Below, piece by piece: positions 1 through 38,191 of a stretch of 38,191 nt of DNA. A program made the translations under genes and the position numbers. Location: the IMG/VR virus record IMGVR_UViG_2778261450_000003, positions 1-38,191 of that record. One strand, given 5' to 3'. Below the pieces are notes generated by a model. The model was given only the letters and a program-made list of their open reading frames with translations, searched no databases and was not told the DNA's origin. The stretch's first letter is position 1. Each line of letters begins with the position of its first letter. This DNA comes from a virus (taxonomy: Duplodnaviria > Heunggongvirae > Uroviricota > Caudoviricetes).

Positions 1-573
1 TTACTTAGATATTATCCTTGATTCTTTCCGGGTGACATAAGTACAGTTTGAAGGAATTTCATCCATGATAAATGACATTGCCCCGATCTTGACATTATCT
101 CCAATTTTAAAACCAGAGCCCAGAATGAATGAGTGGGCGCCAATATCAACGTTATTGCCAATCGTTATTCTATCGTGTTCATTATCCGATTGACTACGAC
201 CAATGGTTGTATTTTGTCTGATAGTCAGATTTTCTCCAATGATTGCCGTACTGGTAACAACGATGCCCGTGTGATGGATAATTGTCAGACCCTTGCCAAC
301 GGTCAGCCCTAGACCAAGATCACAGCTGTATTCACTGAGTAATTTGCGGTTGATTTTCTTCGCTGCTTTTTTTGTATATTTCCCGCCATGGATAAACATT
401 TCATTTGCAAGTCTCCACCAGAAGATGTATTTTCTTGAGCGTGATCTCTTCTCTCTTAGTAGGCGATGAATTAAAAATCGATCGCGACGGATGACTTCAA
501 CTTTCCAGCATTCGAATAGATGTTTCGTATTACCAAATAATATAAAATAAAGAGCAAAAATATATTTAGTCAT
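1..573 (-). CDS. hexapeptide-repeat (left-handed beta-helix) acetyltransferase, serine/sugar O-acetyltransferase-like
   Basis: Complete 190-aa ORF (ATG 571-573, TAA 1-3); tandem hexapeptide motifs (IGENLTI, IGNNVDIG, IGDNVKIG); strongly AT-rich unlike the rest of the window. Confidence 0.6.
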   Translation of the reverse strand: MTKYIFALYFILFGNTKHLFECWKVEVIRRDRFLIHRLLREKRSRSRKYIFWWRLANEMFIHGGKYTKKAAKKINRKLLSEYSCDLGLGLTVGKGLTIIHHTGIVVTSTAIIGENLTIRQNTTIGRSQSDNEHDRITIGNNVDIGAHSFILGSGFKIGDNVKIGAMSFIMDEIPSNCTYVTRKESRIISK

Positions 574-1736: not shown

Positions 1737-3434
1737 TCAGGCGATAAGGTCACCGTATTTTTCGCGCAGGCTCGTAGCCTGTTTGGCGTCTGCGGCAAGT
1801 TCGCTGCTGTTTGTTGGTGCGCCGGTGTTGCTGTGGGTGTGGTTTGCAGTGTGTGTGGCCAGCAACTGAACCAGATCCAGAATATCAATCAACAACGTCA
1901 GCAGATTAAGTCCGGATTTTTCCCGTGAGCCACCGCGACCAATAAATACTGTCGGGGCTGTAAACTCCAGACCACCGTCCGCCCGGCATGTTCTGCGGCC
2001 TCCCACGTTTTCAGTAAGGTCGCGCTCAATCGTGGATGTCGCCCCTTTGAGTTTAGTCAGCAAATCCTGCGCTACCATCTGGATATGCTCACCGGCTGCG
2101 ATCGCATAATGACCAGTAGTAATGTGTTCTGTCTGGCCTGTCATCAGCTTGCTGGTTCCCAGAACGCTGGTTATGTCGTTTGCCTGTACTGTTGTTGTTC
2201 TGGTTGTTGTTGTGCGTTCTTCCTGATCGCTGTTAATGGTTCGTCTGGCTGAATGCTCCCTGATTTGCTGATCGGTTTCTCTGTGCCAGCTTCCGTCAGT
2301 CGTGACGCGCTGAAACACTTCTGCGCGCTGTTGCTGCAGCTGTTCGCCGGGCTTTACATCAGGCAGGTTATGGCCAGCGGGTAAGATTTGCCTGATAACG
2401 GGTTTGTCCGGACGTCCTTCAATGTTGGATATTTCCACGATGGTGCCTGCCGGTGGGTAGGCAAAACATCCCGCCTCACTGCCAGCCATGGGGACGGGGA
2501 GCGGTACTGCCGGGTAAACGGGCGTGTCGCTTTTATCGTTGCCGTTCTCATCAAGCAACTGCACATCGACGGCGTAGCGTGGGCGGAAACTGTCGGCCAC
2601 GTCGCCCAGGGTGGTGGGCTCCGTTGGCGCAATGACGCGCGCCAGCCGGGTATGTAGCGTACCGCTGGCCAGTTCCGGGAACTGTGTTTCCATTTGTCTG
2701 CGTAATGGTGATTTGGAAACAGGGGTACCCGTGGCGGTAAGGCGCTCCCATGTCAGGGTCATTTTCTCGTTGTTGAGGGCTACACGGGTAATGCGCCCGG
2801 CCGGTAGGTTCACGCCCGGTCGCACAGTTTCCATAAACATGATGTCGATGCTGTTTCCGCCGCTTTGCCCGAGTGTGTACTGTTGCGGAATATCCGGCAT
2901 TGTAATACTGGCAAATCGTGAATCAGCTGCGCTTCCCACAAATACAGAACCGTCCGGCATAGGGTGCCAGACGTAATCGCTGATACTGAATGCTCGCCCC
3001 AGTTGGCTGAGCAGTTGTGCTCCGCTGCCGCTGTGGGTGATGTAGGGAGTTGGTATACTGGCATAATCCGCATCCGGAGTGATAAAAACGATACCGCTTT
3101 GTCGCCCCAGATTATCGAGTACCCCCCGCAACGTCGGGTGTTGCATGGAGCAAGGGAAATCAAAATCCAGCACAGCAGCCGCTTCACGAATAAAAAGGCG
3201 ACGTGAGCCATTTTCAGCAGGTTGATCGCGCTCAATGTAGCCGGAGAAATAGCGCCATGCTTCACCGTCACGGCCGAGATCAATTTGTACCATTGCGCCG
3301 GCAAGGCTGTGTTCGGGTGACAGATTGTTAACAGAAATGAAGCCACGACCGGCAGCATTCAGGGTAAGAACAAGGCTTATATCGGCAATTTCCACCCGTT
3401 CGCCATTAATCATGCAGCGTTGTATCAATTTCAT
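1737..3434 (-). CDS. baseplate hub / central spike protein (gpD+gpV-like, VgrG-like architecture)
   Basis: 565-aa ORF, last gene of the tail operon with ATGA overlap to the upstream gene; mid-region resembles the gp5/gpV OB-fold (PMAGSEAGCFAYPPAGTIVEISNIEGRPDKPVI) and the C-terminus carries an HTANHTHSNTG motif like the His-rich spike apex; assignment from memory. Confidence 0.5.
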   Translation of the reverse strand: MKLIQRCMINGERVEIADISLVLTLNAAGRGFISVNNLSPEHSLAGAMVQIDLGRDGEAWRYFSGYIERDQPAENGSRRLFIREAAAVLDFDFPCSMQHPTLRGVLDNLGRQSGIVFITPDADYASIPTPYITHSGSGAQLLSQLGRAFSISDYVWHPMPDGSVFVGSAADSRFASITMPDIPQQYTLGQSGGNSIDIMFMETVRPGVNLPAGRITRVALNNEKMTLTWERLTATGTPVSKSPLRRQMETQFPELASGTLHTRLARVIAPTEPTTLGDVADSFRPRYAVDVQLLDENGNDKSDTPVYPAVPLPVPMAGSEAGCFAYPPAGTIVEISNIEGRPDKPVIRQILPAGHNLPDVKPGEQLQQQRAEVFQRVTTDGSWHRETDQQIREHSARRTINSDQEERTTTTRTTTVQANDITSVLGTSKLMTGQTEHITTGHYAIAAGEHIQMVAQDLLTKLKGATSTIERDLTENVGGRRTCRADGGLEFTAPTVFIGRGGSREKSGLNLLTLLIDILDLVQLLATHTANHTHSNTGAPTNSSELAADAKQATSLREKYGDLIA

Positions 3435-4006
3435 GTTTTCCCTTCCTCTTTCACGCTCCCGATGCCAACAGCATCCAGACCAGAGCCAACGGCATCATTG
3501 ATTTTTTTCCAGAACGAACTTTGCGTATTCATGCCTTTGTCTGGTACCTGTTCGCTGCCATTCTGGGTCTGCTGTCTGGCGATGGTTTTCTGCGAACCGC
3601 TGCGTGCGGATGCTTTCTCTGGCACGCTTAATTTTTCCCTGAGAGTAAAGGTGATCTGCCAGTGCATTTTTCCCTGTTGTTCCGTGGCATCAATGCCACC
3701 AGAAAACACCCCCTGTCGCATATTGATTGCCTTCGCGGTAGCGTTAGCAATGCGATATGTTTTTTTAGCACCGTTGCTTTCTGTTGCCTCCGCAAGCTGA
3801 AAAATACGGGTCAGAATAGCTTCATCGTTAAAATCAATAACCCCCGACACGCGCAGCTCTTTAGCCTTGTTTCCCTGCTGGGCGCTCGTGGTGCTGGTTG
3901 ACTGTCCGGACATATCTTTGTCCGGTAGTTGCATGGTGGCGCTGACGGTGATGTTACGCAGCAGAATGGCTTCCCCGTCAAGCGCAAGGACAATCATCTG
4001 GGTCAT
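3431..4006 (-). CDS. hypothetical protein in tail operon (possible tail/baseplate component)
   Basis: 191-aa ORF with AGGGAA RBS; ATGA-coupled to the hub/spike gene; no motif recognised. Confidence 0.35.
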   Translation of the reverse strand: MTQMIVLALDGEAILLRNITVSATMQLPDKDMSGQSTSTTSAQQGNKAKELRVSGVIDFNDEAILTRIFQLAEATESNGAKKTYRIANATAKAINMRQGVFSGGIDATEQQGKMHWQITFTLREKLSVPEKASARSGSQKTIARQQTQNGSEQVPDKGMNTQSSFWKKINDAVGSGLDAVGIGSVKEEGKT

Positions 4007-4691
4007 GTAGTGCTTCCCTTAGTGATGAGAGATTATCGCCGACGAACAGCATCACAGCTGTAAAAACCCACTCGGGGTGTGGGATGTTTTTTTGTATCAG
4101 CACTGCAGCCTGGCTAAGGGCTCCCTTGTAGCAAAAGCGCCACACCGGGCAAACTTTTTGCCGGAGTGCGGCCTGCTGATCAGCGATTTCCTGTAAGGCT
4201 TTATCTCTCGCATTCATGAACTGATGCAGCGATGATGACAATGTTTCCGGTGATGTGGCGGCAGGAGTGGCTGCCTGTGCAATGGTTGCTGCCAGCGACA
4301 TGCTGCGAGTGGTCTGTGTCGACAGCATTATCGGTTCCGGAAGTGATGTTGCCGGTCTGGCGGGGATTTGCATTCTGCTGATGGCCAGTGAAAGTTGACT
4401 GGAAATCATGCGGGACATTCGCCCCACCTCTGGCAATGGAAATGCGTCTGAAAATTGCCTGGCGAGTGATAAAAACTCGCCAGCAGAAGGAGCGCAAAAC
4501 AACAGCGCCACAATGTCTTTTTCTGTGCTTTCTTTCAGGTAGGGTAAAAGTGCAGATACAGCATTTTCGGGGCTGAGATAACGCCCCGATGGTTTGATGT
4601 TTCCGGTATTTTCTGACCACGGATGAAGACAAACCACAGAACATTTAATGTTTATGGCAGACGGACGTAAAATTACCTCTTTCCATTTCAT
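3978..4691 (-). CDS. hypothetical Cys-rich protein in tail operon
   Basis: 237-aa ORF whose ATG overlaps the stop of the upstream tail-fibre chaperone (ATGA); Cys pairs near both termini (CSVVC, CPVWRFC, DCPCA) and a Ser/Thr/Ala-rich middle; no family recognised. Confidence 0.35.
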   Translation of the reverse strand: MKWKEVILRPSAINIKCSVVCLHPWSENTGNIKPSGRYLSPENAVSALLPYLKESTEKDIVALLFCAPSAGEFLSLARQFSDAFPLPEVGRMSRMISSQLSLAISRMQIPARPATSLPEPIMLSTQTTRSMSLAATIAQAATPAATSPETLSSSLHQFMNARDKALQEIADQQAALRQKVCPVWRFCYKGALSQAAVLIQKNIPHPEWVFTAVMLFVGDNLSSLREALHDPDDCPCA

Positions 4692-5260
4692 TCTGCTTTG
4701 CCCACCTGAAATGCCCTAATTGCAGCAATGTTATTCAGTGTGGCCAGCGTGTTTTTCATCTCACGCTGGCGCAGGTAAATCTCATCGTTGCGTGCAGCCT
4801 GAGCCTGCACCATTGCCGTAAGTAGTTCTTCCAGCTTTTGTTGTGACAATTTAATTTGTTGGTTATTTGCATCACTCCATACTGTGGCATTGTGTGCCAC
4901 ACCAGATTTTGCTGCCATCACTGCCGGGAATAAGCGTTCCAGTGAGGATTTTCCTCCATTCCATGTGCTGCTGTTCCATTCGAATGTGAACGGCTGCGCC
5001 TCCTGTTCTGTTCGCCAGCGCCTGATTTCCTCTTTTTTCAGTTCTTTTTCTTTGTCCAGCATCTCTGCTGTTACAGTGAAGGGGATGATTTCACCAAACT
5101 CACCGCTCATCAGTGTTCCCCATACCCGCTGGCCTGATGCAGCAGAATCATTTTCCACTGCACGATAAGGAATATAATCAGCCCGCCCTTCAAACAACAC
5201 TTCACAGGAAACAGACCCGTCTTCCAGGTATTTCATCGCCTTTATGTCGATTATTTTCAT
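4688..5260 (-). CDS. tail fibre assembly chaperone (second copy, divergent type)
   Basis: 190 aa from the ATG at 5260, which overlaps the fibre-2 stop (TAATG); position directly after a tail fibre gene; weaker similarity to classical Tfa than the first copy. Confidence 0.45.
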   Translation of the reverse strand: MKIIDIKAMKYLEDGSVSCEVLFEGRADYIPYRAVENDSAASGQRVWGTLMSGEFGEIIPFTVTAEMLDKEKELKKEEIRRWRTEQEAQPFTFEWNSSTWNGGKSSLERLFPAVMAAKSGVAHNATVWSDANNQQIKLSQQKLEELLTAMVQAQAARNDEIYLRQREMKNTLATLNNIAAIRAFQVGKAE

Positions 5261-7299
5261 TATTCTGCCCTCATCACCAGGCAAATCCACCAGGCATTGG
5301 CTTTATTCCCACAGTTCAGACTCTGACTGGAGCCATTCAGAATAAAATAGGACCCCGGCAATAACCCGTACATCATCGATACGTTGTAAACCGATGCCGC
5401 TGCGCACGGATTACCATTGTTCTCAAACATAAGCGATACATGCCGTAACTTTTCGCCTGATATCCTGTCCCCACGCTTATGTGAGGCAAGGTCAGCGACA
5501 GATATTGCTGCCAGTGTGACTCCGTCAATCCCCGGGTTTCCCCAGAAGTCAGCAGAGCGTAATCCCTTCGCGCTGAGATTTCCCCAGCCAGCCAGACCGG
5601 CTCCGGCACTGGTCCATTTCAGCCAGTTGATAAACATTTCTCCCTTCTTACTCATGAAAATAATGAGCTTGTCTGCACGCGATTGCGAAGACGAGGAGGC
5701 TGTATCCGGAATAATAATTTCAACAATCCCTTCCAGACGATTTTCCTTGTCAATAATCTGAGGCGCGCTATATGAAGTACCGTCTCCTACCGCATACCGG
5801 CCCGGTGGTGTAGTGGATACCCAGGAAATAAAATCAGCAGGGCCGTTTTCTCCCCTGAAAATGACTTTGTCTTCATGTCGGTAATATCCTCCATATCCCA
5901 GCGTCCCCGGAATGGCCACCACGCCTTCGCTGCGGTCATAAATATTATTCTGTGGCACCACAGTGTCTGACCTTTCCAGCTCAAGCACTCTGCGCATATC
6001 TTCCGGTGTGGCCTGTGCCAGCAGTGAACGGGCTTCTGGCGTCAACCGTGTCAGCGATGCGTTCCCGTCCGAATCAAAGTACAGAAGATTATCTGCCTGA
6101 GCGTTTAACCTGCTGATGGCGGTTAAAACATCACTAAGTGGCTGTTTGCCTGCAAGCGCGTTAGTGACCGTCGTTGCAAAATTCGGGTCACTGCCCAGCG
6201 CCGCTGCCAGCTCATTCAGTGTGTCAAGGGCTTCCGGAGATGAGCCAACCAGTGCAGCGAGCAGTTTGCGGACAAACGCCGCGTTCGCCATCTCCAGCCC
6301 GACCGCATCATCCGGTGGGGTTGGTGTGGTTGGCGTACCGGTGAACGCCGGGCTGTTCAGCGGCGCGCGGGTTTCAATCAGCGCCCTGAGTGAAGCCTCG
6401 TTGACTTTCAGGTTTTCCCAGCCAGTCAGCAATCCATTTCCTGTACTCCAGTAACGGTTGTAATAAATATCACCGTTAATGCCATAGAAAATAATGGCCT
6501 TTGCTGTATGTGGTGGCAGAGGTGTGGAGCGTTCTGCTTCCAGCCAGCGGATACTTATCATCCCCCGGAAGGCGATGCCGGGAAGTACTCCGCTTCCCCC
6601 CTCCACATAATATTCTCCGGGTTCCACACATCTTACCCATGCCAGCAAATCAGCCTCGTTGTTAAACCTGACAGCATCACCCGGAATAAAAATATGACCA
6701 AAACCAAATGCGCCCGGTATCGCCAGACAACCTTCAGTCCGGTCTCGAATATCACCCTGTGGCTCCATTATGGCTGAAACTTTCAGTCCCAGATTGTCGC
6801 GGGATTCCTGTTGCGCCTCTTCGCCTTCTGCTGCAATTTCTGACAGGTGATTAGGAGTTTTCAGTGCTGTTTTCAGCTCCGGAGTGATATCCACCTGCCA
6901 GCTCTGGGGAGGGACGCTGATTTGCGCGGACTGAGCAATGCCTCTGTAGGTGATTGTAAAATTGCGGACGAGTGACTCACCTGTCGTTTTCTGTCTGACG
7001 GGAGTTTTTATTACGCCGCATAACGTTCCACTGGCCTGATGGATGAGACAAATCCAGTCATAACTGAAAACACAGTCATCAGGAACAACGGCGCTGCACA
7101 CAATAGTGTCCTGGCTTAACTGGCCACAGGTCAGTTCATTCACAGCGTATGTGATTCTGTCTTCCGGAACGGTATTGTCTTCGCGCGTTGGTTCCCGCTC
7201 CATCAGGGCAAAAATAATAGCGTCAGGGCGTGCAGGTAAATTACTGGCAGTGCATTCAGCAACCCACTTTTCAAATGCTTTTGTTAACAGTGCGCTCAT
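5260..7299 (-). CDS. tail fibre protein 2
   Basis: 679-aa ORF; N-terminal ~150 aa homologous to the N-terminus of the fibre at 7860-9560 (PARPD, SG-LC-I, TP motifs); contains an internal ~110-aa duplication (DRTEG...GWENL / DRSEG...GWGNL). Confidence 0.6.
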   Translation of the reverse strand: MSALLTKAFEKWVAECTASNLPARPDAIIFALMEREPTREDNTVPEDRITYAVNELTCGQLSQDTIVCSAVVPDDCVFSYDWICLIHQASGTLCGVIKTPVRQKTTGESLVRNFTITYRGIAQSAQISVPPQSWQVDITPELKTALKTPNHLSEIAAEGEEAQQESRDNLGLKVSAIMEPQGDIRDRTEGCLAIPGAFGFGHIFIPGDAVRFNNEADLLAWVRCVEPGEYYVEGGSGVLPGIAFRGMISIRWLEAERSTPLPPHTAKAIIFYGINGDIYYNRYWSTGNGLLTGWENLKVNEASLRALIETRAPLNSPAFTGTPTTPTPPDDAVGLEMANAAFVRKLLAALVGSSPEALDTLNELAAALGSDPNFATTVTNALAGKQPLSDVLTAISRLNAQADNLLYFDSDGNASLTRLTPEARSLLAQATPEDMRRVLELERSDTVVPQNNIYDRSEGVVAIPGTLGYGGYYRHEDKVIFRGENGPADFISWVSTTPPGRYAVGDGTSYSAPQIIDKENRLEGIVEIIIPDTASSSSQSRADKLIIFMSKKGEMFINWLKWTSAGAGLAGWGNLSAKGLRSADFWGNPGIDGVTLAAISVADLASHKRGDRISGEKLRHVSLMFENNGNPCAAASVYNVSMMYGLLPGSYFILNGSSQSLNCGNKANAWWICLVMRAE

Positions 7300-7305
7300 T
7301 ACTTC

Positions 7306-7857
7306 TTAATTCTCGCTAATGTTCTGCGGTAATTCTGGCCATACAATCGCGGCATACGATGCTTTATCTGTAACCTGGCTGAATGTCATCTCTCGTAACT
7401 TTTTTGTATAAATACGGCAGGCTTTCAGTTTTTCCCTGTCTTCGTCGCTGATTAATCCCAGCAGCAGGTCTTTTTCCCACTCGCAGGTCATGATGCTGGA
7501 CTGTTTTAACAGGGCATCACGCTCGTCTTCTGCTTTTAATTTGTAATCGAAGACAAATTCATCATTGCGGTAAAACCAGTAACCCGGTGCAGTGATGCGG
7601 CGGTTAGCGGTAATATCCGGAACTTCAATAACACTGGCATTACGGGGTTCAATGCCTGTCATATCCTTACCGACCCACACCACGCGCCCGTCCCCGGTGT
7701 AAACCATTTTTATTGTGTCGCTGGCAAAGTTCTTCTGTTCTTCATACCAGTTTTTGTCGTCTTCCGAAAAAAGCCAGGTGACACCATATTGTTTTGTCAT
7801 CTGATATTGTTCTGCGGTTTTCGGATTGCCCGCAGTAATATTTTTTAAATGCAACAT
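7306..7857 (-). CDS. tail fibre assembly protein (Tfa/gpG-like)
   Basis: 183-aa ORF immediately after fibre 1; C-terminal region (DEDREKLKACRIYTKKLREM...WPELP) resembles conserved Tfa C-termini. Confidence 0.6.
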   Translation of the reverse strand: MLHLKNITAGNPKTAEQYQMTKQYGVTWLFSEDDKNWYEEQKNFASDTIKMVYTGDGRVVWVGKDMTGIEPRNASVIEVPDITANRRITAPGYWFYRNDEFVFDYKLKAEDERDALLKQSSIMTCEWEKDLLLGLISDEDREKLKACRIYTKKLREMTFSQVTDKASYAAIVWPELPQNISEN

Positions 7858-7859
7858 TA

Positions 7860-9560
7860 TTAAACACTCGCCACGTTATACCAGGTGCCGTTAATCAGTT
7901 TCTGAAGCGGTCGGTAATACACGCCGCCGATGTTATCTGCCGAATTACTTCCGGTTTCCTGCACATTAATACCAGATAATCCATGGCCTGAAGGTGAGCG
8001 AAATGTCCAGGATATCTGGTTACCTCCCGGGTTGTAATACATTTCGGAACCATAACGCACATCCTGCACGCCGCCTGTTTTGGTCTGGTAACGGGCATCA
8101 AAGTTTCCGTAGTCTGACGGTGTTACCCGCCCGGTAACGTTTACAGGTTTATTACTCTGAATGCTGCCACTCTGAAAACGCAACACATGCACGCTATTGG
8201 CATAAACATCCAGCAGGCCATCACCATTCTGTTTCAGGCCGGTATCGTTATCCCCGAAAGCAATTGAGTTTCCGCCCAGCGCATTCTGAACGCCGATACC
8301 CAACGCACCGTTAACTTTCGAACCACCGCCAACAGATACTGCGTGTAACATGGAAACTTCACCCGTCCGCAAATTAATAGTGAACGGACGCAGGGGGCCA
8401 ATATCGCCATTCTCGCCCTGACCTTCACTGGTAGGGATAAGGTGCAGGCACTCTTCCGAACGACGAAAAATCAGGCCAAAAGCTTCGTTGAAAATCCTCA
8501 GTGCATTAACACCACGGATTTTCAGCTCCCCGGTCATGGTGTCGCCGTCGCGCTCAACAGCGTCTTTTGCTTTATCCATTGCGGCTTTTACTGCCTTTGA
8601 TGTGGCGGCGCGGTCTTCTGCGTCGCTGTCGGTGGAGTTGCTGTACTGCGCAAAGCCTTTCTCCTGCAGTGTTGCGTCCGGATGATGGCGGGATTTTTCG
8701 TGCTCTGCCAGTGCATTGCTTTGTTCTTCGTCGGGTGTCTCCGGGCGCAGGTCCTGTGGGCCGTCTCCTGTCATTTTTGCAAGTGGCGCGACAAAGTGTC
8801 GGAAGCCGTTACCGTCTGTATAAGACGCATGTTCCTGGCGGGCGCAGAACGTAAAAACGGTATTCCATTCGCCAGTAACAAATCCCTGCCAGCTTGCATC
8901 AATCCAGAGGGTATCCCCGACCGCAGCCGGCAGGCTGTAAGGTTCGCGCAGACTGACGCGCAGACCTCCCACATAACCCACGCCGGCGGCAACAGTAGCG
9001 GTACCGTCCTGATAGCTGACCTGAAAACCATCCCCCAGAAAGGCGGCTTCACCGTAGTGATCAAACGCCAGCAGCCGGCGGGCCTCATCCATTCCTGCAA
9101 GGCGTGCAGTGAAATCAATCTGCCAGACATCAGCGCTGACATCGATATGCATTGCTGCGGCTGCGCCGTCAAACTCCATGGAAAATGTGCGGATCAGGTT
9201 GTTTCCCTGCACGCCGTTCGCTGTTTTAATTTTTTGCTGACGAGGTGTGTGTGCAATCATGCAGAGCACGCCGCTTTCTTCGTTCAGCAGACCGATCCAG
9301 TTGTATTCGAAGTCGCCGACTGTCGTGTCCAGAATGATGGAAAACGCGGTCGCGTTCGGCGACAGGAGGCCGTACTGGGTGACCGGCGCACGATACTGAA
9401 TCATGGATTCATCAGGGAGTATCTCATCGCGGGGGATCTCTGCGGATTCATCCTGTCCCGGAATATATGCAAAAACAAATGTATCCGGGCGCGCAGGTTT
9501 TCCACTGATGATTTGATTTGCGCACCAGTGTTCGTACTGTTCAGTAATAATCGTGCTCAT
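7860..9560 (-). CDS. tail fibre protein 1
   Basis: 566-aa ORF, ATGA-coupled to the upstream baseplate gene; shares its N-terminal domain with fibre 2; Gly-rich C-terminal region. Confidence 0.6.
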   Translation of the reverse strand: MSTIITEQYEHWCANQIISGKPARPDTFVFAYIPGQDESAEIPRDEILPDESMIQYRAPVTQYGLLSPNATAFSIILDTTVGDFEYNWIGLLNEESGVLCMIAHTPRQQKIKTANGVQGNNLIRTFSMEFDGAAAAMHIDVSADVWQIDFTARLAGMDEARRLLAFDHYGEAAFLGDGFQVSYQDGTATVAAGVGYVGGLRVSLREPYSLPAAVGDTLWIDASWQGFVTGEWNTVFTFCARQEHASYTDGNGFRHFVAPLAKMTGDGPQDLRPETPDEEQSNALAEHEKSRHHPDATLQEKGFAQYSNSTDSDAEDRAATSKAVKAAMDKAKDAVERDGDTMTGELKIRGVNALRIFNEAFGLIFRRSEECLHLIPTSEGQGENGDIGPLRPFTINLRTGEVSMLHAVSVGGGSKVNGALGIGVQNALGGNSIAFGDNDTGLKQNGDGLLDVYANSVHVLRFQSGSIQSNKPVNVTGRVTPSDYGNFDARYQTKTGGVQDVRYGSEMYYNPGGNQISWTFRSPSGHGLSGINVQETGSNSADNIGGVYYRPLQKLINGTWYNVASV

Positions 9561-10192
9561 GCTTCATCTGCCTGTAATGTGTAATGTTCCACGGACAGGC
9601 CGTAATGTCCTGCCTGTAGCGAAGCGGTTAACCAGATGGTGTCCTTTCTCACCGTTGCTTCTGCTGTGTGATACCTGTAATGGCCATCAAATGTGCCGGC
9701 TGTCAGCCGGGCAGTGGTTGTATTGATTACCTGAAAGAAATAGCGCCTGCAGGTACGACCATACTGGCGCACGAGCTGCATCATCAGCGCGTTGTTTTCA
9801 CTTAACTGGGTGTCATTAATGCGCAGTAAAATAACGTCCCAGTCATGCTGCAGTTGCCGTTCCAGTGTTTTAACGTCTCCCACACCAAGACGCTTAAAGA
9901 TGCGTTCGAAGCCGGCGCGTTCACCAGAGTCCTGAGCGTTAATAAACGCGTGTTTCACTCTTAAGCGAAATAACGAAACCGGCTCACCTTTAAATCGGGT
10001 GATATTGCGCTGATAAGCCAGCAGGTTAAGTAAAGGCTCTGCGCAGGTGTCGACATCAATCTGCTGTAGTGGCCACGTCAGCCAGCTGTATACCTTTTCC
10101 CAGTAGCGATGCGATGAATGTGCCAGCGTTAACGGCTCGCCTTTATTCATCCAGGTGGGGAGCGGGAATTCAGGGATCTCCGGAAGTTTCAC
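9557..10192 (-). CDS. baseplate/tail protein (P2 gpI-like position)
   Basis: 211-aa ORF between the J-like gene and the tail fibre; GTG start overlaps the J-like stop (alternative ATG at 10150); assignment mainly positional. Confidence 0.45.
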   Translation of the reverse strand: MKLPEIPEFPLPTWMNKGEPLTLAHSSHRYWEKVYSWLTWPLQQIDVDTCAEPLLNLLAYQRNITRFKGEPVSLFRLRVKHAFINAQDSGERAGFERIFKRLGVGDVKTLERQLQHDWDVILLRINDTQLSENNALMMQLVRQYGRTCRRYFFQVINTTTARLTAGTFDGHYRYHTAEATVRKDTIWLTASLQAGHYGLSVEHYTLQADEA

Positions 10193-26056: not shown

Positions 26057-27016
26057 TTACTCCTTGTCCATTGCGTACAGCCCATTAACCAGAGCAAACT
26101 GTGGCACCCCGTCCGCGATGAAAGTCGCATTAACTCCGCAGGCTTCGCGGATAGCGGGTGCCACAATATCAGCCCCTCCACCGACAACCATCACCCGTCC
26201 GTACCCCGAAAAACCAGCCAGCGCACGGATCACACGTTGTTTCAGTGTTTCTTCCTTTTCATGAATAACCGCCATCAGGTTGGCGTAATGCGCGTCATTG
26301 TGAATGTGCTGGCGCAGCCAGGCTTCATCGTGGCGATGTTCGATAATGGTATTGGCGATGTGGTGACTGGTGCGCATACCGTTAGTGGCCATCACCGACA
26401 GTACAGCATCGGCCATCAGAGAAACGCCTACGTGTGGATCGCAAAACACCTGGCTGATACCTGCCAGTTGTCCCTGAACCTTTGCCACATCCAGCGTGGT
26501 TCCGCCTAAATCAACAATAAGCAGGGATTCAAACGGACTCATGTCAGCCAGCGCCTTAAAGCCTGCCGGAATGGATTCAGGCATAACCCGCACGTTACGG
26601 ATAGTGAATGCTTTGCCGTTCTGGTACTCCACCGGGCGCATGACGTTCGCTTTTTTTCGGTTGATGTTTGCCATGTCCGGCTGTGCGTTTGTGTCGAAAT
26701 ATTCGCTCAGTGGCAGGGTGACAACCACATCCACTTCCTGTGGCGTGATGCCTGATTTGACCAGTGCGTGATGAATGGCAATGACATTCACATCACTGTA
26801 CTGGTATTGCGTGTCGGTCGTCTGGACAAAGCGATCGCTGACCGGATCAAAACCATAGCGCACGCTATCAAGCATGTAGTTCGCGGGCTGCATGCCACCG
26901 AACGGCGCAGACCATTCCGACTTGAAGCTGTTCGGGCTGATGGCGTTGCGGCGTTCGCTGTTCTCAGTCCATGCCAGCTTGATGTTGGTTGAGCCGTCGT
27001 CGATGTAAATTTTCAT
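26057..27016 (-). CDS. parM: ParM/StbA actin-like plasmid segregation ATPase
   Basis: 319-aa ORF with AAGGAA RBS; N-terminus MKIYIDDGSTNIKLAW...ISPNSFK...YQYSDVNVIAIHHAL matches remembered R1 ParM (MLVFIDDGSTNIKLQW...ISPNSFK...WQYSDVNVVAVHHAL). Confidence 0.85.
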   Translation of the reverse strand: MKIYIDDGSTNIKLAWTENSERRNAISPNSFKSEWSAPFGGMQPANYMLDSVRYGFDPVSDRFVQTTDTQYQYSDVNVIAIHHALVKSGITPQEVDVVVTLPLSEYFDTNAQPDMANINRKKANVMRPVEYQNGKAFTIRNVRVMPESIPAGFKALADMSPFESLLIVDLGGTTLDVAKVQGQLAGISQVFCDPHVGVSLMADAVLSVMATNGMRTSHHIANTIIEHRHDEAWLRQHIHNDAHYANLMAVIHEKEETLKQRVIRALAGFSGYGRVMVVGGGADIVAPAIREACGVNATFIADGVPQFALVNGLYAMDKE

Positions 27017-30957: not shown

Positions 30958-31788
30958 TTACTTCACGGGAACGAACGGAACAGCGGTGTTACTGGTCATG
31001 TATTGCGGCAGCGTGCCGTTCCATTTGTTGATCGCTTCCAGCTCCATAACGCCGGGATTCTGGCGCAGAGCTTCGCCGCGTAAACGAATGGCGTCGGCTT
31101 CAGCCTGGGCTTTTGTGCGAATGGCATCGGCCTGTCCGGCAGCTTCTGCGCGCAACATGTTGGCTTCTGCTTCGCGTTGCTTGACTTCCTGTTCGCGTTG
31201 CAGGGTTTTCTGGTTTGCCGTGACTTTGGCGTTAATGCTGTCGATAACGGTTGGCGGATATTCCGGTTTACCGACATAAGAGAGGCTCATGACCTGAATA
31301 CCGATGGGGGTCATCTCTTCCTGAATATCTTTAAGTGCTGAATCCAGCAGTTCAGACTTACCACCGTCGATAAACTTATCGGTGGTCATTTTGCTGGCCA
31401 GTCGGTTGAGTGCATCGGCGATCTTCTGGCGCAGGTCAGTGTCGGTAATGTCGTCCACGCCTTTGCGGTAGGTCTGAAACACCGTGGTAACTTTGGATGG
31501 ATCAACTTTGTAGGCCACGCCGATGTGATAGCCGATGGTTGTGCCGTCACTCATCTGGAAGTTGAACGGCTCATCGTAAGTCTTCATTTGTTTGAAGGTC
31601 GGGAAGATGTAAACCTCTGTATTCCAGCCTGTCCAGTAGCGGCCAACGCCAACCACTTCACCGACGCCTTTGTCGTCGCCCAGTTTGTTGACTTTGATGC
31701 CCACATTACCTGGCTCAACGCGATCGCAACCAACCAGCAGGATGGCGGCAAAAAGCGGGAGAATCTGAAAGAGTTTGAATTTCTTCAT
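30958..31788 (-). CDS. SPFH/band-7 (stomatin-prohibitin-like) lipoprotein
   Basis: 276-aa ORF; N-terminal signal with lipobox LLVGC; central SPFH-like region and Ala/Glu/Arg-rich coiled-coil C-terminus typical of band-7 proteins. Confidence 0.7.
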   Translation of the reverse strand: MKKFKLFQILPLFAAILLVGCDRVEPGNVGIKVNKLGDDKGVGEVVGVGRYWTGWNTEVYIFPTFKQMKTYDEPFNFQMSDGTTIGYHIGVAYKVDPSKVTTVFQTYRKGVDDITDTDLRQKIADALNRLASKMTTDKFIDGGKSELLDSALKDIQEEMTPIGIQVMSLSYVGKPEYPPTVIDSINAKVTANQKTLQREQEVKQREAEANMLRAEAAGQADAIRTKAQAEADAIRLRGEALRQNPGVMELEAINKWNGTLPQYMTSNTAVPFVPVK

Positions 31789-35898: not shown

Positions 35899-35967
35899 CG
35901 CTTTATAAACATTACATTTTCACCATTTGTTTTCAGGATGGTGAACTGACTGTTGGAGGGACTTCTT

Positions 35968-36990
35968 GTGTCTGTTAAGAAGCTCGAAGATGGTCGCTAT
36001 GAAGTGGATGTAAGGCCGCGCGGGCGCGACGGAAAGCGTATCCGGCGGAAGTTTGAGAGAAAAGCGGAGGCGCATGCTTTTGAACGAAGCATCATTGCAA
36101 AGTATCAGAACCATGACTACCTGAGTCGTCCTGCAGACAAGCGGCGACTGAGTGAGTTTATCGCTTTGTGGTGGCAGCTCATTGGACGTAATAAGAACTA
36201 CGCTAATCGTAGGCTTAGTGCGTTAAGCTGTATTTGCCAGGATATGGGGGATCCCATGATTTACCAGATTGATGGTCGATGCCTTATCGAATACCGGGCA
36301 TATAGATTGGGGCAAGGTATAAAGGCTTCAACGATTAACCATGATCTTTTTGCTCTGAGCGGTATGTTTAAGGCGATGGCTGAGATCGATGAGTTTCATG
36401 GGGATAATCCTGTAGAGGCAATATCTGCTTTAAAAGAGCCAAAAACTGAGATGTCTTACTTTACCGAGTCTGAGGTTAAGCGGTTATTATCCTTATGCAC
36501 TGGTGATTATTTCCGGATTGCTGTTCTCTTGCTTGCAACTGGTGCGAGGTGGGGTGAGGCTTATCAGCTCAAAGCGGAAAATATTGTGGGTGATAGGGTG
36601 ATATTTACGCTTACAAAAAATGGCGAGCGACGAGTTGTTCCCATTTCAGAGGAGGTTGTAAATATTGTAAGGCATCGAGAATCTGGTCGACTTTTTCGTG
36701 TGAGTTACAAAACTTTTCGTTTAAAAATGAAAGAGGCAAAACCTAATTTACCTGATGGTCAGGCAGCTCATGCATTGCGTCATACGTTTGCTACTCATTT
36801 TATGATGAAGGGCGGGAATATAATTGCGTTACAAAGAATTCTTGGTCACGCAGATATTTCACAAACAATGACATATGCTCATTTTGCACCTGATTATTTA
36901 TTGGATGCAGTGAATTATAATCCTCTTGTGGGAATGTCCACATTGTGTCCACACTTTGGAGGCAAAGTGGGGATTTTAGAGGGTAGTTAA
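35968..36990 (+). CDS. int: tyrosine integrase, P2 Int-like
   Basis: About 340 aa from the GTG at 35968 (GGAGGG RBS; the track's ORF starts at TTG 35953); N-terminus KKLEDGRYEVDVRPRGRDGKRIRRKF and C-terminal HALRHTFATHF...LGH...TMTYAH catalytic region match P2 Int. Confidence 0.85.
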   Translation: MSVKKLEDGRYEVDVRPRGRDGKRIRRKFERKAEAHAFERSIIAKYQNHDYLSRPADKRRLSEFIALWWQLIGRNKNYANRRLSALSCICQDMGDPMIYQIDGRCLIEYRAYRLGQGIKASTINHDLFALSGMFKAMAEIDEFHGDNPVEAISALKEPKTEMSYFTESEVKRLLSLCTGDYFRIAVLLLATGARWGEAYQLKAENIVGDRVIFTLTKNGERRVVPISEEVVNIVRHRESGRLFRVSYKTFRLKMKEAKPNLPDGQAAHALRHTFATHFMMKGGNIIALQRILGHADISQTMTYAHFAPDYLLDAVNYNPLVGMSTLCPHFGGKVGILEGS

Positions 36991-37258: not shown

Positions 37259-38191
37259 ATGTTAGATGCAAACAAATTACAGCAGGCAGTGGATCAGGCT
37301 TACACCCAATTTCACTCACTTAACGGCGGACAAAATGCCGACTACATTCCCTTTCTGGCGAATGTACCTAGTCAACTGGCAGCAGTGGCTATTGTGACCT
37401 GCGATGGCAACATCTATCGCGCGGGTGATAGTGATTACCGCTTTGCGCTGGAATCCATCTCGAAAGTCTGTACGTTAGCCCTTGCGTTAGAGGATGTCGG
37501 CCCGCAGGCGGTACAGGACAAAATTGGCGCTGACCCGACCGGATTGCCCTTTAACTCAGTTATCGCCTTAGAGTTGCATGGCGGCAAACCGCTTTCGCCA
37601 CTGGTAAATGCTGGCGCCATTGCCACCACCAGCCTGATTAACGCTGAAAATGTTGAACAACGCTGGCAGCGAATTTTACATATCCAACAGCAACTGGCTG
37701 GTGAGCAGGTAGCGCTCTCTGACGAAGTCAACCAGTCGGAACAAACAACCAACTTCCATAACCGGGCCATTGCCTGGCTGCTGTACTCCGCCGAATATCT
37801 CTATTGTGATGCAATGGAAGCCTGTGACGTGTACACCCGTCAGTGCTCCACGCTCCTCAATACTGTTGAACTGGCAACACTTGGCGCGACGCTGGCGGCG
37901 GGGGGTGTGAATCCGCTGACGCATGAACGCGTTCTTCAGGCCGACAACGTGCCGTACATTCTGGCCGAAATGATGATGGAAGGGCTGTATGGTCGCTCCG
38001 GTGACTGGGCGTATCGCGTTGGTTTACCGGGCAAAAGCGGTGTAGGTGGCGGTATTCTGGCGGTCGTCCCTGGCGTGATGGGAATTGCCGCGTTCTCACC
38101 ACCGCTGGACGAAGAAGGCAACAGTGTTCGCGGTCAAAAAATGGTGGCATCGGTCGCTAAGCAACTCGGCTATAACGTGTTTAAGGGCTGA
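37259..38191 (+). CDS. glsA: glutaminase A (acid-activated glutaminase)
   Basis: 310-aa ORF ending at the window edge, matching remembered E. coli GlsA/YbaS almost throughout (MLDANKLQQAVDQAYTQFHSLNGGQNADYIPFLANVP ... VASVAKQLGYNVFKG). Confidence 0.9.
   Translation: MLDANKLQQAVDQAYTQFHSLNGGQNADYIPFLANVPSQLAAVAIVTCDGNIYRAGDSDYRFALESISKVCTLALALEDVGPQAVQDKIGADPTGLPFNSVIALELHGGKPLSPLVNAGAIATTSLINAENVEQRWQRILHIQQQLAGEQVALSDEVNQSEQTTNFHNRAIAWLLYSAEYLYCDAMEACDVYTRQCSTLLNTVELATLGATLAAGGVNPLTHERVLQADNVPYILAEMMMEGLYGRSGDWAYRVGLPGKSGVGGGILAVVPGVMGIAAFSPPLDEEGNSVRGQKMVASVAKQLGYNVFKG

Follow-up and report, generated by a model that had tools for sequence, protein, structure and literature searches.

Tail fibres decide which cells a temperate phage can enter, and the locus described here raises the question of why a prophage of E. 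coli would carry two complete fibre genes in tandem, each followed by a chaperone gene of its own, and whether both fibres are mounted on the same virion. The locus lies in IMG/VR record IMGVR_UViG_2778261450_000003, positions 1 to 38,191, and this whole stretch of 38,191 nucleotides (nt) is called the window throughout. With its P2-family head module, gpA replication gene and HP1-type tail module, the window is an apparently complete, Peduoviridae-type, HP1-like prophage of E. coli with a P2-family capsid. Its fibre region is 99.9% identical to five complete E. coli genomes, and no backbone relative was found when a phage collection was searched with the window. The original prediction, made from the letters alone, held that the two fibres share an N-terminal attachment domain and have unrelated distal regions, that the second contains an internal duplication, and that two receptor specificities are expressed together rather than switched by inversion. 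Our answer, to which we would give a probability of roughly 0.7, is that the prophage makes two complete fibres with their own chaperones from one operon in which no switch was found, and that the virion is expected to carry both.

Two fibre pairs on related adaptors

The four genes of the two pairs, as first called, are all open reading frames (ORFs) on the minus strand and lie where they had been placed (Table 1). When the two fibres were compared by BLASTP, their first ~217 amino acids (aa) aligned with 30% identity (E 7e-22), the first ~35 residues being the most alike, and, taking a score above the gathering cut-off as Pfam membership (23 bits for PF12571, 25 bits for PF14301), both fibres belong to PF12571, fibre 1 with 102.9 bits and fibre 2 with 36.4 bits. 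The N-terminal similarity is therefore significant, and the shared attachment domain of the original prediction stands; in fibre 1 this adaptor covers aa 3-157 (about nt 9081-9560). Past ~217 aa BLASTP found no significant similarity between the two fibres, and their distal regions are unrelated. The two chaperones, when compared, also proved unrelated to each other, tail fibre assembly protein 1 (T1) being of the Caudo_TAP type (PF02413) and chaperone 2 of the DUF4376 type (PF14301), two different recognised fibre chaperone types, and each fibre is thus followed by a chaperone of its own, as had been claimed.

Table 1. Positions of the fibre genes, the modules of fibre 2 and the adjoining baseplate genes in the window
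Feature	Position (nt)	Strand	Basis or remark
gpI-like baseplate wedge protein, 211 aa	9557-10192	minus	Pfam Tail_P2_I; 48-52% identity to HP1 orf30 and SI7 gp19; presumed tether of both adaptors
Fibre 1, 566 aa	7860-9560	minus	PF12571 2e-29, PF03406, weak gp37_trimer
T1, tail fibre assembly protein 1, 183 aa	7306-7857	minus	Mu U / lambda Tfa type
Fibre 2, 679 aa	5260-7299	minus	divergent PF12571 6e-9, then knob D1, linker, knob D2, tip
Fibre 2 adaptor, aa 1-150	6850-7299	minus	PF12571; paralogue of fibre 1 adaptor
Fibre 2 repeat copy D1, knob-like domain, aa 164-297	6409-6810	minus	aligns with D2
Fibre 2 linker module, aa ~306-432	6004-6384	minus	SPAFTGTPT...LNELAAALG fibre motif
Fibre 2 repeat copy D2, aa 433-575	5575-6003	minus	33% identity to D1
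Fibre 2 C-terminal tip, aa 576-679	5263-5574	minus	presumed receptor-binding and chaperone-binding end
Chaperone 2, DUF4376 type, 190 aa from ATG at 5260	4688-5260	minus	PF14301 1.9e-12, phrog_1141
HP1 orf33-like protein, 237 aa	3978-4691	minus	BLASTP to HP1 and SI7
HP1 orf34-like protein, 191 aa	3431-4006	minus	Pfam HP1_ORF34 2.5e-53; HP1/SI7 BLASTP
HP1 orf35-like protein, 565 aa	1737-3434	minus	BLASTP to HP1 and SI7

Judged by homology, fibre 1 and its Mu-U-type assembly protein are the canonical fibre pair of HP1-like phages. Over aa 1-354 fibre 1 is 44% identical to gp20 of Salmonella phage SI7, and it is 36% identical to orf31 of Haemophilus phage HP1. Its distal, receptor-binding part (aa ~294-566) is Mu-S-like (PDB 5yvq_A, Mu fibre S, E 2.6e-19), and T1, besides matching Caudo_TAP (PF02413, 4.8e-21) and phrog_136, matches Mu U in the same crystal (PDB 5yvq_B, E 4e-36), so that the pair belongs to the Mu S/U type, the homology lying in the distal part of the fibre and in the assembly protein. 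The surrounding genes follow the order of HP1 orf27-35 and SI7 gp16-24, namely tape measure, DUF2590, J, I, fibre, assembly protein, orf33, orf34 and orf35, with identities between SI7 and the window of 59% for gpJ, 52% for gpI, 51% for orf34 and 48% for orf35. HP1 and SI7 have one fibre pair, whereas the window has a second one inserted after the assembly protein, and fibre 2 resembles the HP1 and SI7 fibres in the adaptor only (25-30% identity). Because fibre 1 is the orthologue of the HP1 and SI7 fibre, and these phages have a single pair, fibre 1 is ancestral and the fibre 2 pair an addition. Compared with the fibres of sequenced phages, the fibre 2 adaptor attains at best 25-31% identity. 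Both PF12571 fibres come after the gpJ and gpI wedge genes, fibre 1 overlapping the gpI stop and fibre 2 following T1; the baseplate J, DUF2590 and tape measure genes are upstream of this run, and since the orf33-, orf34- and orf35-like baseplate genes are downstream (a block, 1737-4691, within which a phrog_2258 baseplate protein match also falls), the fibre pairs are embedded in the baseplate operon.

Modular build and integrity of the second fibre

The internal duplication claimed for fibre 2, at 6412-6744 and 5578-5937, is a real repeat and slightly longer than proposed, although it did not arise in fibre 2 itself. When the two halves of the protein were compared, D1 and D2 aligned with 33% identity over 144 aa (E 5e-17), and their Smith-Waterman score of 160 stands far above that of shuffled sequences (33.9 +/- 5.5; z = 22.9). 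A repeat at the DNA level could not be detected for D1 and D2, so that the duplication is old. Over its distal ~70% fibre 2 shares 45-60% identity with a large family of E. coli prophage fibres of ~1030 aa with a PF08400 N-terminus, in which, according to the family consensus and a comparison with Rac-SA53, the D1/D2-type domain is found in three copies and the SPAFTGTPT...LNELAAALG linker in two. Given the three domain copies in that family, the repeat of fibre 2 is an inherited, family-wide modular feature and not a recent event. The PF08400 domain itself is absent from the N-terminus of fibre 2, where PF12571 is found instead, and only the distal ~510 aa are homologous to the PF08400 proteins. 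The linker matches PDB 9d93 'tail collar fibers gp4' at aa 341-403 (E 9e-10), and many PHROG tail-fibre families match aa 307-442; apart from this linker, solved structures contained no relative of fibre 2, and they contained none of chaperone 2. Many members of the fibre 2 family are named 'shikimate transporter' in NCBI annotation, a label that looks like a propagated naming error.

The tip of fibre 2 has its homologues in the tips of PF08400 fibres whose genes likewise precede a DUF4376 gene, and the same tip and DUF4376 pairing is found in other prophages. Among the related loci that carry a second fibre, a DUF4376 gene lies downstream exactly in those whose fibre 2 has the D2/tip module and is absent where the distal part differs. 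Chaperone 2 of the window, a protein of ~190 aa encoded directly downstream of fibre 2, scores 48 bits against PF14301. The ATG at 5260, which has a GAGGG Shine-Dalgarno sequence and overlaps the stop of fibre 2 as TAATG, is a more likely start than the GTG at 5290. In Alteromonas phages V22 and A5, as well as in a prophage of Campylobacter, experiments have been reported in which DUF4376 proteins were required as chaperones of the fibres (PMC10579305, PMC7882524), and by analogy with these distant members fibre 2 may need chaperone 2 for its folding and function.

Parallels to the whole arrangement are found in Mu/phiP27-like E. coli prophages. Escherichia phage Rac-SA53 tail1-4, pPE4 gp67-70 and the genomic context of protein P0088, a typical PF08400 homologue, show the same four-gene layout as the window, namely a fibre with a Mu-S-like tip, a Caudo_TAP protein, a knob-repeat fibre and a DUF4376 protein. 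Between that cassette and the window, the chaperone following the second fibre is 53-57% identical (pPE4 and Rac-SA53), the distal part of the fibre ~47% identical, and there are DNA stretches of 83-89% identity. The backbone, however, differs: gpJ and gpI are not detectably similar, and upstream of the cassette there are genes for an unrelated baseplate J and for a protein of 208 aa. The N-termini of the two fibres also differ, since in the Mu/phiP27-like cassette they are unrelated to each other, the second carrying the lambda-Stf-type PF08400, whereas the second fibre of the window carries a PF12571 paralogue. Two tandem fibre/chaperone pairs are thus common in E. coli prophages, and what is particular to the lineage of the window is that the adaptor carrying the distal part of the second fibre is a paralogue of that of the first. 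In the literature we found no prior description of a two-fibre arrangement in HP1-like or phiP27-like prophages, which is not proof that none exists. The recorded host of vB_Apl-pPE4 (PP818812.1) is Actinobacillus pleuropneumoniae, while its fibre genes are 89% identical in DNA to those of E. coli prophages and their layout matches Rac-SA53; this host assignment may deserve a check.

As to how the second pair was acquired, we propose that fibre 2 and its DUF4376 gene would have entered as a cassette between T1 and the orf33-35 baseplate genes. The fibre 2 adaptor is a diverged paralogue of the fibre 1 adaptor, and in such a scheme the distal part (knob, linker, knob and tip) was grafted onto it from side tail fibres of the family that provides Mu/phiP27-like E. 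coli prophages with their second fibre.

A gene of this kind might also be a decaying or silent remnant of recombination that contributes nothing to the virion. Two observations could be taken that way. In the RefSeq entry of EC42405 (NZ_CP043414.1, 1352241-1353230) fibre 2 is split into two 'pseudo' fragments, of which one bears the name 'shikimate transporter', and in E. albertii and one viral contig (loci L005, 7307-9247, and L023) the second fibre is only 285 aa long and the ORF after it, of 352 aa, has a TTG start and no Pfam match; this may be a fibre in two pieces or a gene that has been disrupted. The fibre 2 ORF is, however, intact in EC42405, another genome annotates the full 679-aa protein, and the 69 identical database members as well as an 81%-identical homologue are all 679 aa long. 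Measured against the locus of this homologue, the ratio of non-synonymous to synonymous substitution rates (dN/dS) is 0.16 for fibre 2 (dS 0.82) and 0.19 for chaperone 2; by region of fibre 2 it is 0.10 for the adaptor, 0.17 for D1, 0.16 for the linker, 0.22 for D2 and 0.08 for the tip. Such low values indicate that fibre 2 and chaperone 2 are under purifying selection, and the pair is conserved across the lineage. We therefore reject the idea that fibre 2 is a pseudogene, the 'pseudo' split in RefSeq being an annotation artefact, and consider the remnant explanation largely refuted; that neither fibre is a pseudogene, a point on which the original prediction depended, is borne out by the full-length comparison of fibre 2.

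Operon structure and the search for a switch

The genes of the two pairs are tightly packed. The gpI and fibre 1 genes overlap by 4 nt, fibre 1 and T1 are separated by 2 nt and T1 and fibre 2 by 6 nt, and beyond the TAATG junction of fibre 2 with chaperone 2 the latter overlaps the next gene by 4 nt. A consensus scan found no promoter-like site on the minus strand and only weak terminator-like hairpins, located within coding sequence. With junctions this tight, and neither an internal promoter nor a convincing terminator, co-transcription with translational coupling is the natural reading, and we infer that the fibre genes are co-transcribed from one late operon.

Two alternative receptor specificities in one genome are also what the invertible segment of Mu, P1 and e14 provides, although in the window they are predicted. 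Mu has a constant N-terminal part, two inverted alternative C-terminal parts and the Gin recombinase, and expresses one version at a time. Unlike Mu, the window has two complete fibre genes on the same strand, co-oriented within the structural operon as is characteristic of two-fibre phages, with no invertase or crossover repeats found. A tblastn search of the 38 kb window with a Gin-like serine recombinase returned nothing (best E 2.3); the query was considered adequate for detecting any serine recombinase. The sole recombinase among the ORFs scanned is a tyrosine integrase, which lies at a distance (35953-36990). Inverted repeats are only 16-27 nt long and imperfect (74-90% complementary), and none brackets a fibre-chaperone cassette at gene boundaries. 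An invertible segment would have an adjacent serine invertase and ends in opposite orientation with inverted crossover sites; neither was seen around the fibre pairs, whose neighbours are baseplate genes. The tblastn and inverted-repeat searches of the window having come up empty, we agree with the earlier statement that no invertase is nearby. Two further kinds of variation were considered and rejected, slipped-strand switching because neither repeat tracts nor homopolymers were found in the fibre genes, and a diversity-generating reverse transcriptase because a crude scan for the YxDD motif revealed no reverse transcriptase-like ORF.

With one presumed late transcript and no switch found, both fibre types would be expected on the virion at once. 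The two fibres would be produced constitutively from the late operon and assembled on one baseplate, probably through the C-terminal tether of gpI as gpH is in P2, and the presence of two fibre types would give the particle two receptor specificities. The claim that two specificities are expressed together and are not switched by inversion is thus upheld as regards the single strand, the packed genes and the lack of a switch, whereas display of both fibres on one virion is probable in view of the operon structure and of the retention of both genes in related loci. That the two fibres bind different receptors we likewise infer.

Conservation of the pairs and attachment to the baseplate

When related loci were collected from IMG/VR and E. 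albertii with the orf34-like protein as anchor, both fibres were present in all 14 that extend far enough. Across these loci the fibre 1 adaptor is 91-100% identical to that of the window, the fibre 2 adaptor 65-100%, and the 237-aa orf33-like protein 77-99%. The length of fibre 2 varies widely (285, 350, 518, 544, 619, 645, 668, 679 and 842 aa; 419 and 648 aa in two shorter loci). In a second collection, of 80 viral contigs anchored on gpI, two PF12571 fibres were found in every member with a gpI at least 78% identical and enough downstream sequence, and in 0 of 57 more distant HP1-like contigs; nor did any of the 78 HP1-like records of the phage collection have tandem PF12571 fibres. Among 5426 complete E. 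coli genomes, 47 contain the backbone and 49 the fibre 2 adaptor, and when the orf34-like protein was searched against a set with one genome for each species, a single locus came back, in E. albertii. The two-fibre arrangement is real and conserved in this lineage, and it is a fairly ordinary variation on known multi-fibre phages. In some of the related loci (L024 and L026, 6754-9282, with a second fibre of 842 aa, and L014, 6809-8668, with one of 619 aa) the distal part is unlike that of the window and no chaperone gene is found downstream; these second fibres are possibly self-folding, tailspike-like proteins.

How two fibres would be held by one baseplate is a question on which P2 offers a starting point. 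According to a 2026 preprint, P2 has one gpI per wedge, whose flexible C-terminus inserts into the gpH adaptor, and it is from P2 that we take, by analogy, the attachment of homotrimeric fibres through the gpI C-terminus. In the window, the conserved YGRTCRRY core of gpI is followed by a C-terminal tail of 55 aa (9557-9721) with two similar segments, RLTAGTFDGHYRY and WLTASLQAGHYGL, the motif (R/W)LTA(G/S)xxxGHY being present twice, whereas HP1 gpI has only one such segment. We tentatively suggest, as a scheme that has perhaps one chance in a few of being right, that duplication of the fibre adaptor might have converted the minimal P2/HP1-type baseplate to one for two fibres, each of the six wedges holding a conserved primary fibre and a plug-in second one, twelve in total, with the second adaptor acting as a universal socket for distal modules exchanged with unrelated prophages and the repeat-like gpI tail as a double tether. 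A socket of this kind would account for the spread of fibre 2 lengths, from 285 to 842 aa, and for the presence of a chaperone in some but not all of the otherwise near-identical prophages.

Several points weigh against the display of both fibres on one particle. A P2-type baseplate offers one gpI tether per wedge, so that related adaptors might compete for a single site; gpI tails of 41-67 aa with similar repeat-like segments are also found in single-fibre relatives among the 80 contigs; and the predicted model of fibre 2 is of only moderate confidence, its full distal part being modelled too poorly for Foldseek. It is possible, if rather unlikely, that both fibres are made and compete for the same six gpI sites, with the result that each virion carries a random mixture or mostly one type, a form of bet-hedging across the burst instead of a set of twelve fibres on every particle. 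The single tether per wedge in P2 would fit such competition, as would the common PF12571 origin of the adaptors with their most similar first ~35 residues and the lack of any clean correlation between gpI tail architecture and fibre number across the 80 gpI-containing contigs. Competition does not, however, account well for adaptors that stay distinct paralogues (~30% identity) throughout the lineage without homogenisation, or for both fibre genes always being retained, and the simple baseplate of Sf14 does hold two full fibre sets. In this Shigella phage (Mooglevirus), whose baseplate is Mu-like, the two sets were seen by cryo-electron microscopy (PMC11821841). Sf14 is a myovirus with two adjacent fibre genes; it differs from the prophage of the window in being lytic, in having fibres without chaperone genes and in being unrelated in sequence as far as tested. 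The R2 pyocin fibre, phage K gp144 and T4 gp34 knob domains are also among the closest known systems.

A further arrangement, which we regard as improbable, would have fibre 2 docked away from the baseplate, with fibre 1 or a different virion protein, for instance the variable orf33-like one of 237 aa, as its branching point. Branched fibre systems exist in the T5-like phages DT57C and DT571-2 and in podoviruses with two tailspikes. The greater variability of the fibre 2 adaptor compared with the fibre 1 adaptor would be in line with branching, and so would the rough correspondence, across loci, between the identity of the fibre 2 adaptor and that of the neighbouring 237-aa protein. This covariation is, however, explained equally well by physical linkage and recombination; moreover, in P2, Mu and R-pyocins the PF12571 domain serves as an adaptor to the baseplate, and homologues of the 237-aa protein exist in single-fibre phages. 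Attachment of both fibres to the baseplate therefore remains the reading we prefer.

Other features of the prophage were noted along the way. Adjoining the gpA gene, at 26057-27016, there is a full-length ParM-type actin-like segregation protein (StbA_N and ParM C-terminal domain, E 1e-68 to 1e-80), which in an integrated P2-family prophage hints at a plasmid-like maintenance option. Just past the last baseplate gene, the stretch at ~702-1086 shares 92-94% identity with loci for 'MokW-like host killing' (a hok/mok-type toxin) that are found in many P2-like and Stx phages, and a related locus has a HOK_GEF gene at the equivalent position. An SPFH/Band 7 protein is encoded in the early region (30958-31788). 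The ends of the window (1-573 and 37259-38191) hold a hexapeptide-repeat transferase gene and a glutaminase gene; in EC42405 the flank at the tail end of the prophage is different, the neighbours there being genes for a YafO toxin and an ATP-dependent nuclease, and raiA.

For the annotation of such prophages, the practical point is that the fibre 2 family is widely mislabelled, and in RefSeq sometimes split into pseudogenes. The main points of interest in the locus are the paralogy of the two adaptors and the hypervariable second slot. Gene transfer between lineages of E. coli is driven by the host range of their temperate phages, and phages and tailocins are retargeted mainly by exchanging fibres. 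Should the two fibres be mounted together, the second adaptor would offer a ready-made socket for engineering dual-specificity particles of the P2, HP1 or R-pyocin type, and the structural question is raised of how two fibres are accommodated on a baseplate with one gpI tether per wedge. The lineage, present in about 1% of complete E. coli genomes, offers a natural minimal contractile-tail baseplate that combines a conserved fibre with a freely exchangeable second one on a paralogous adaptor.

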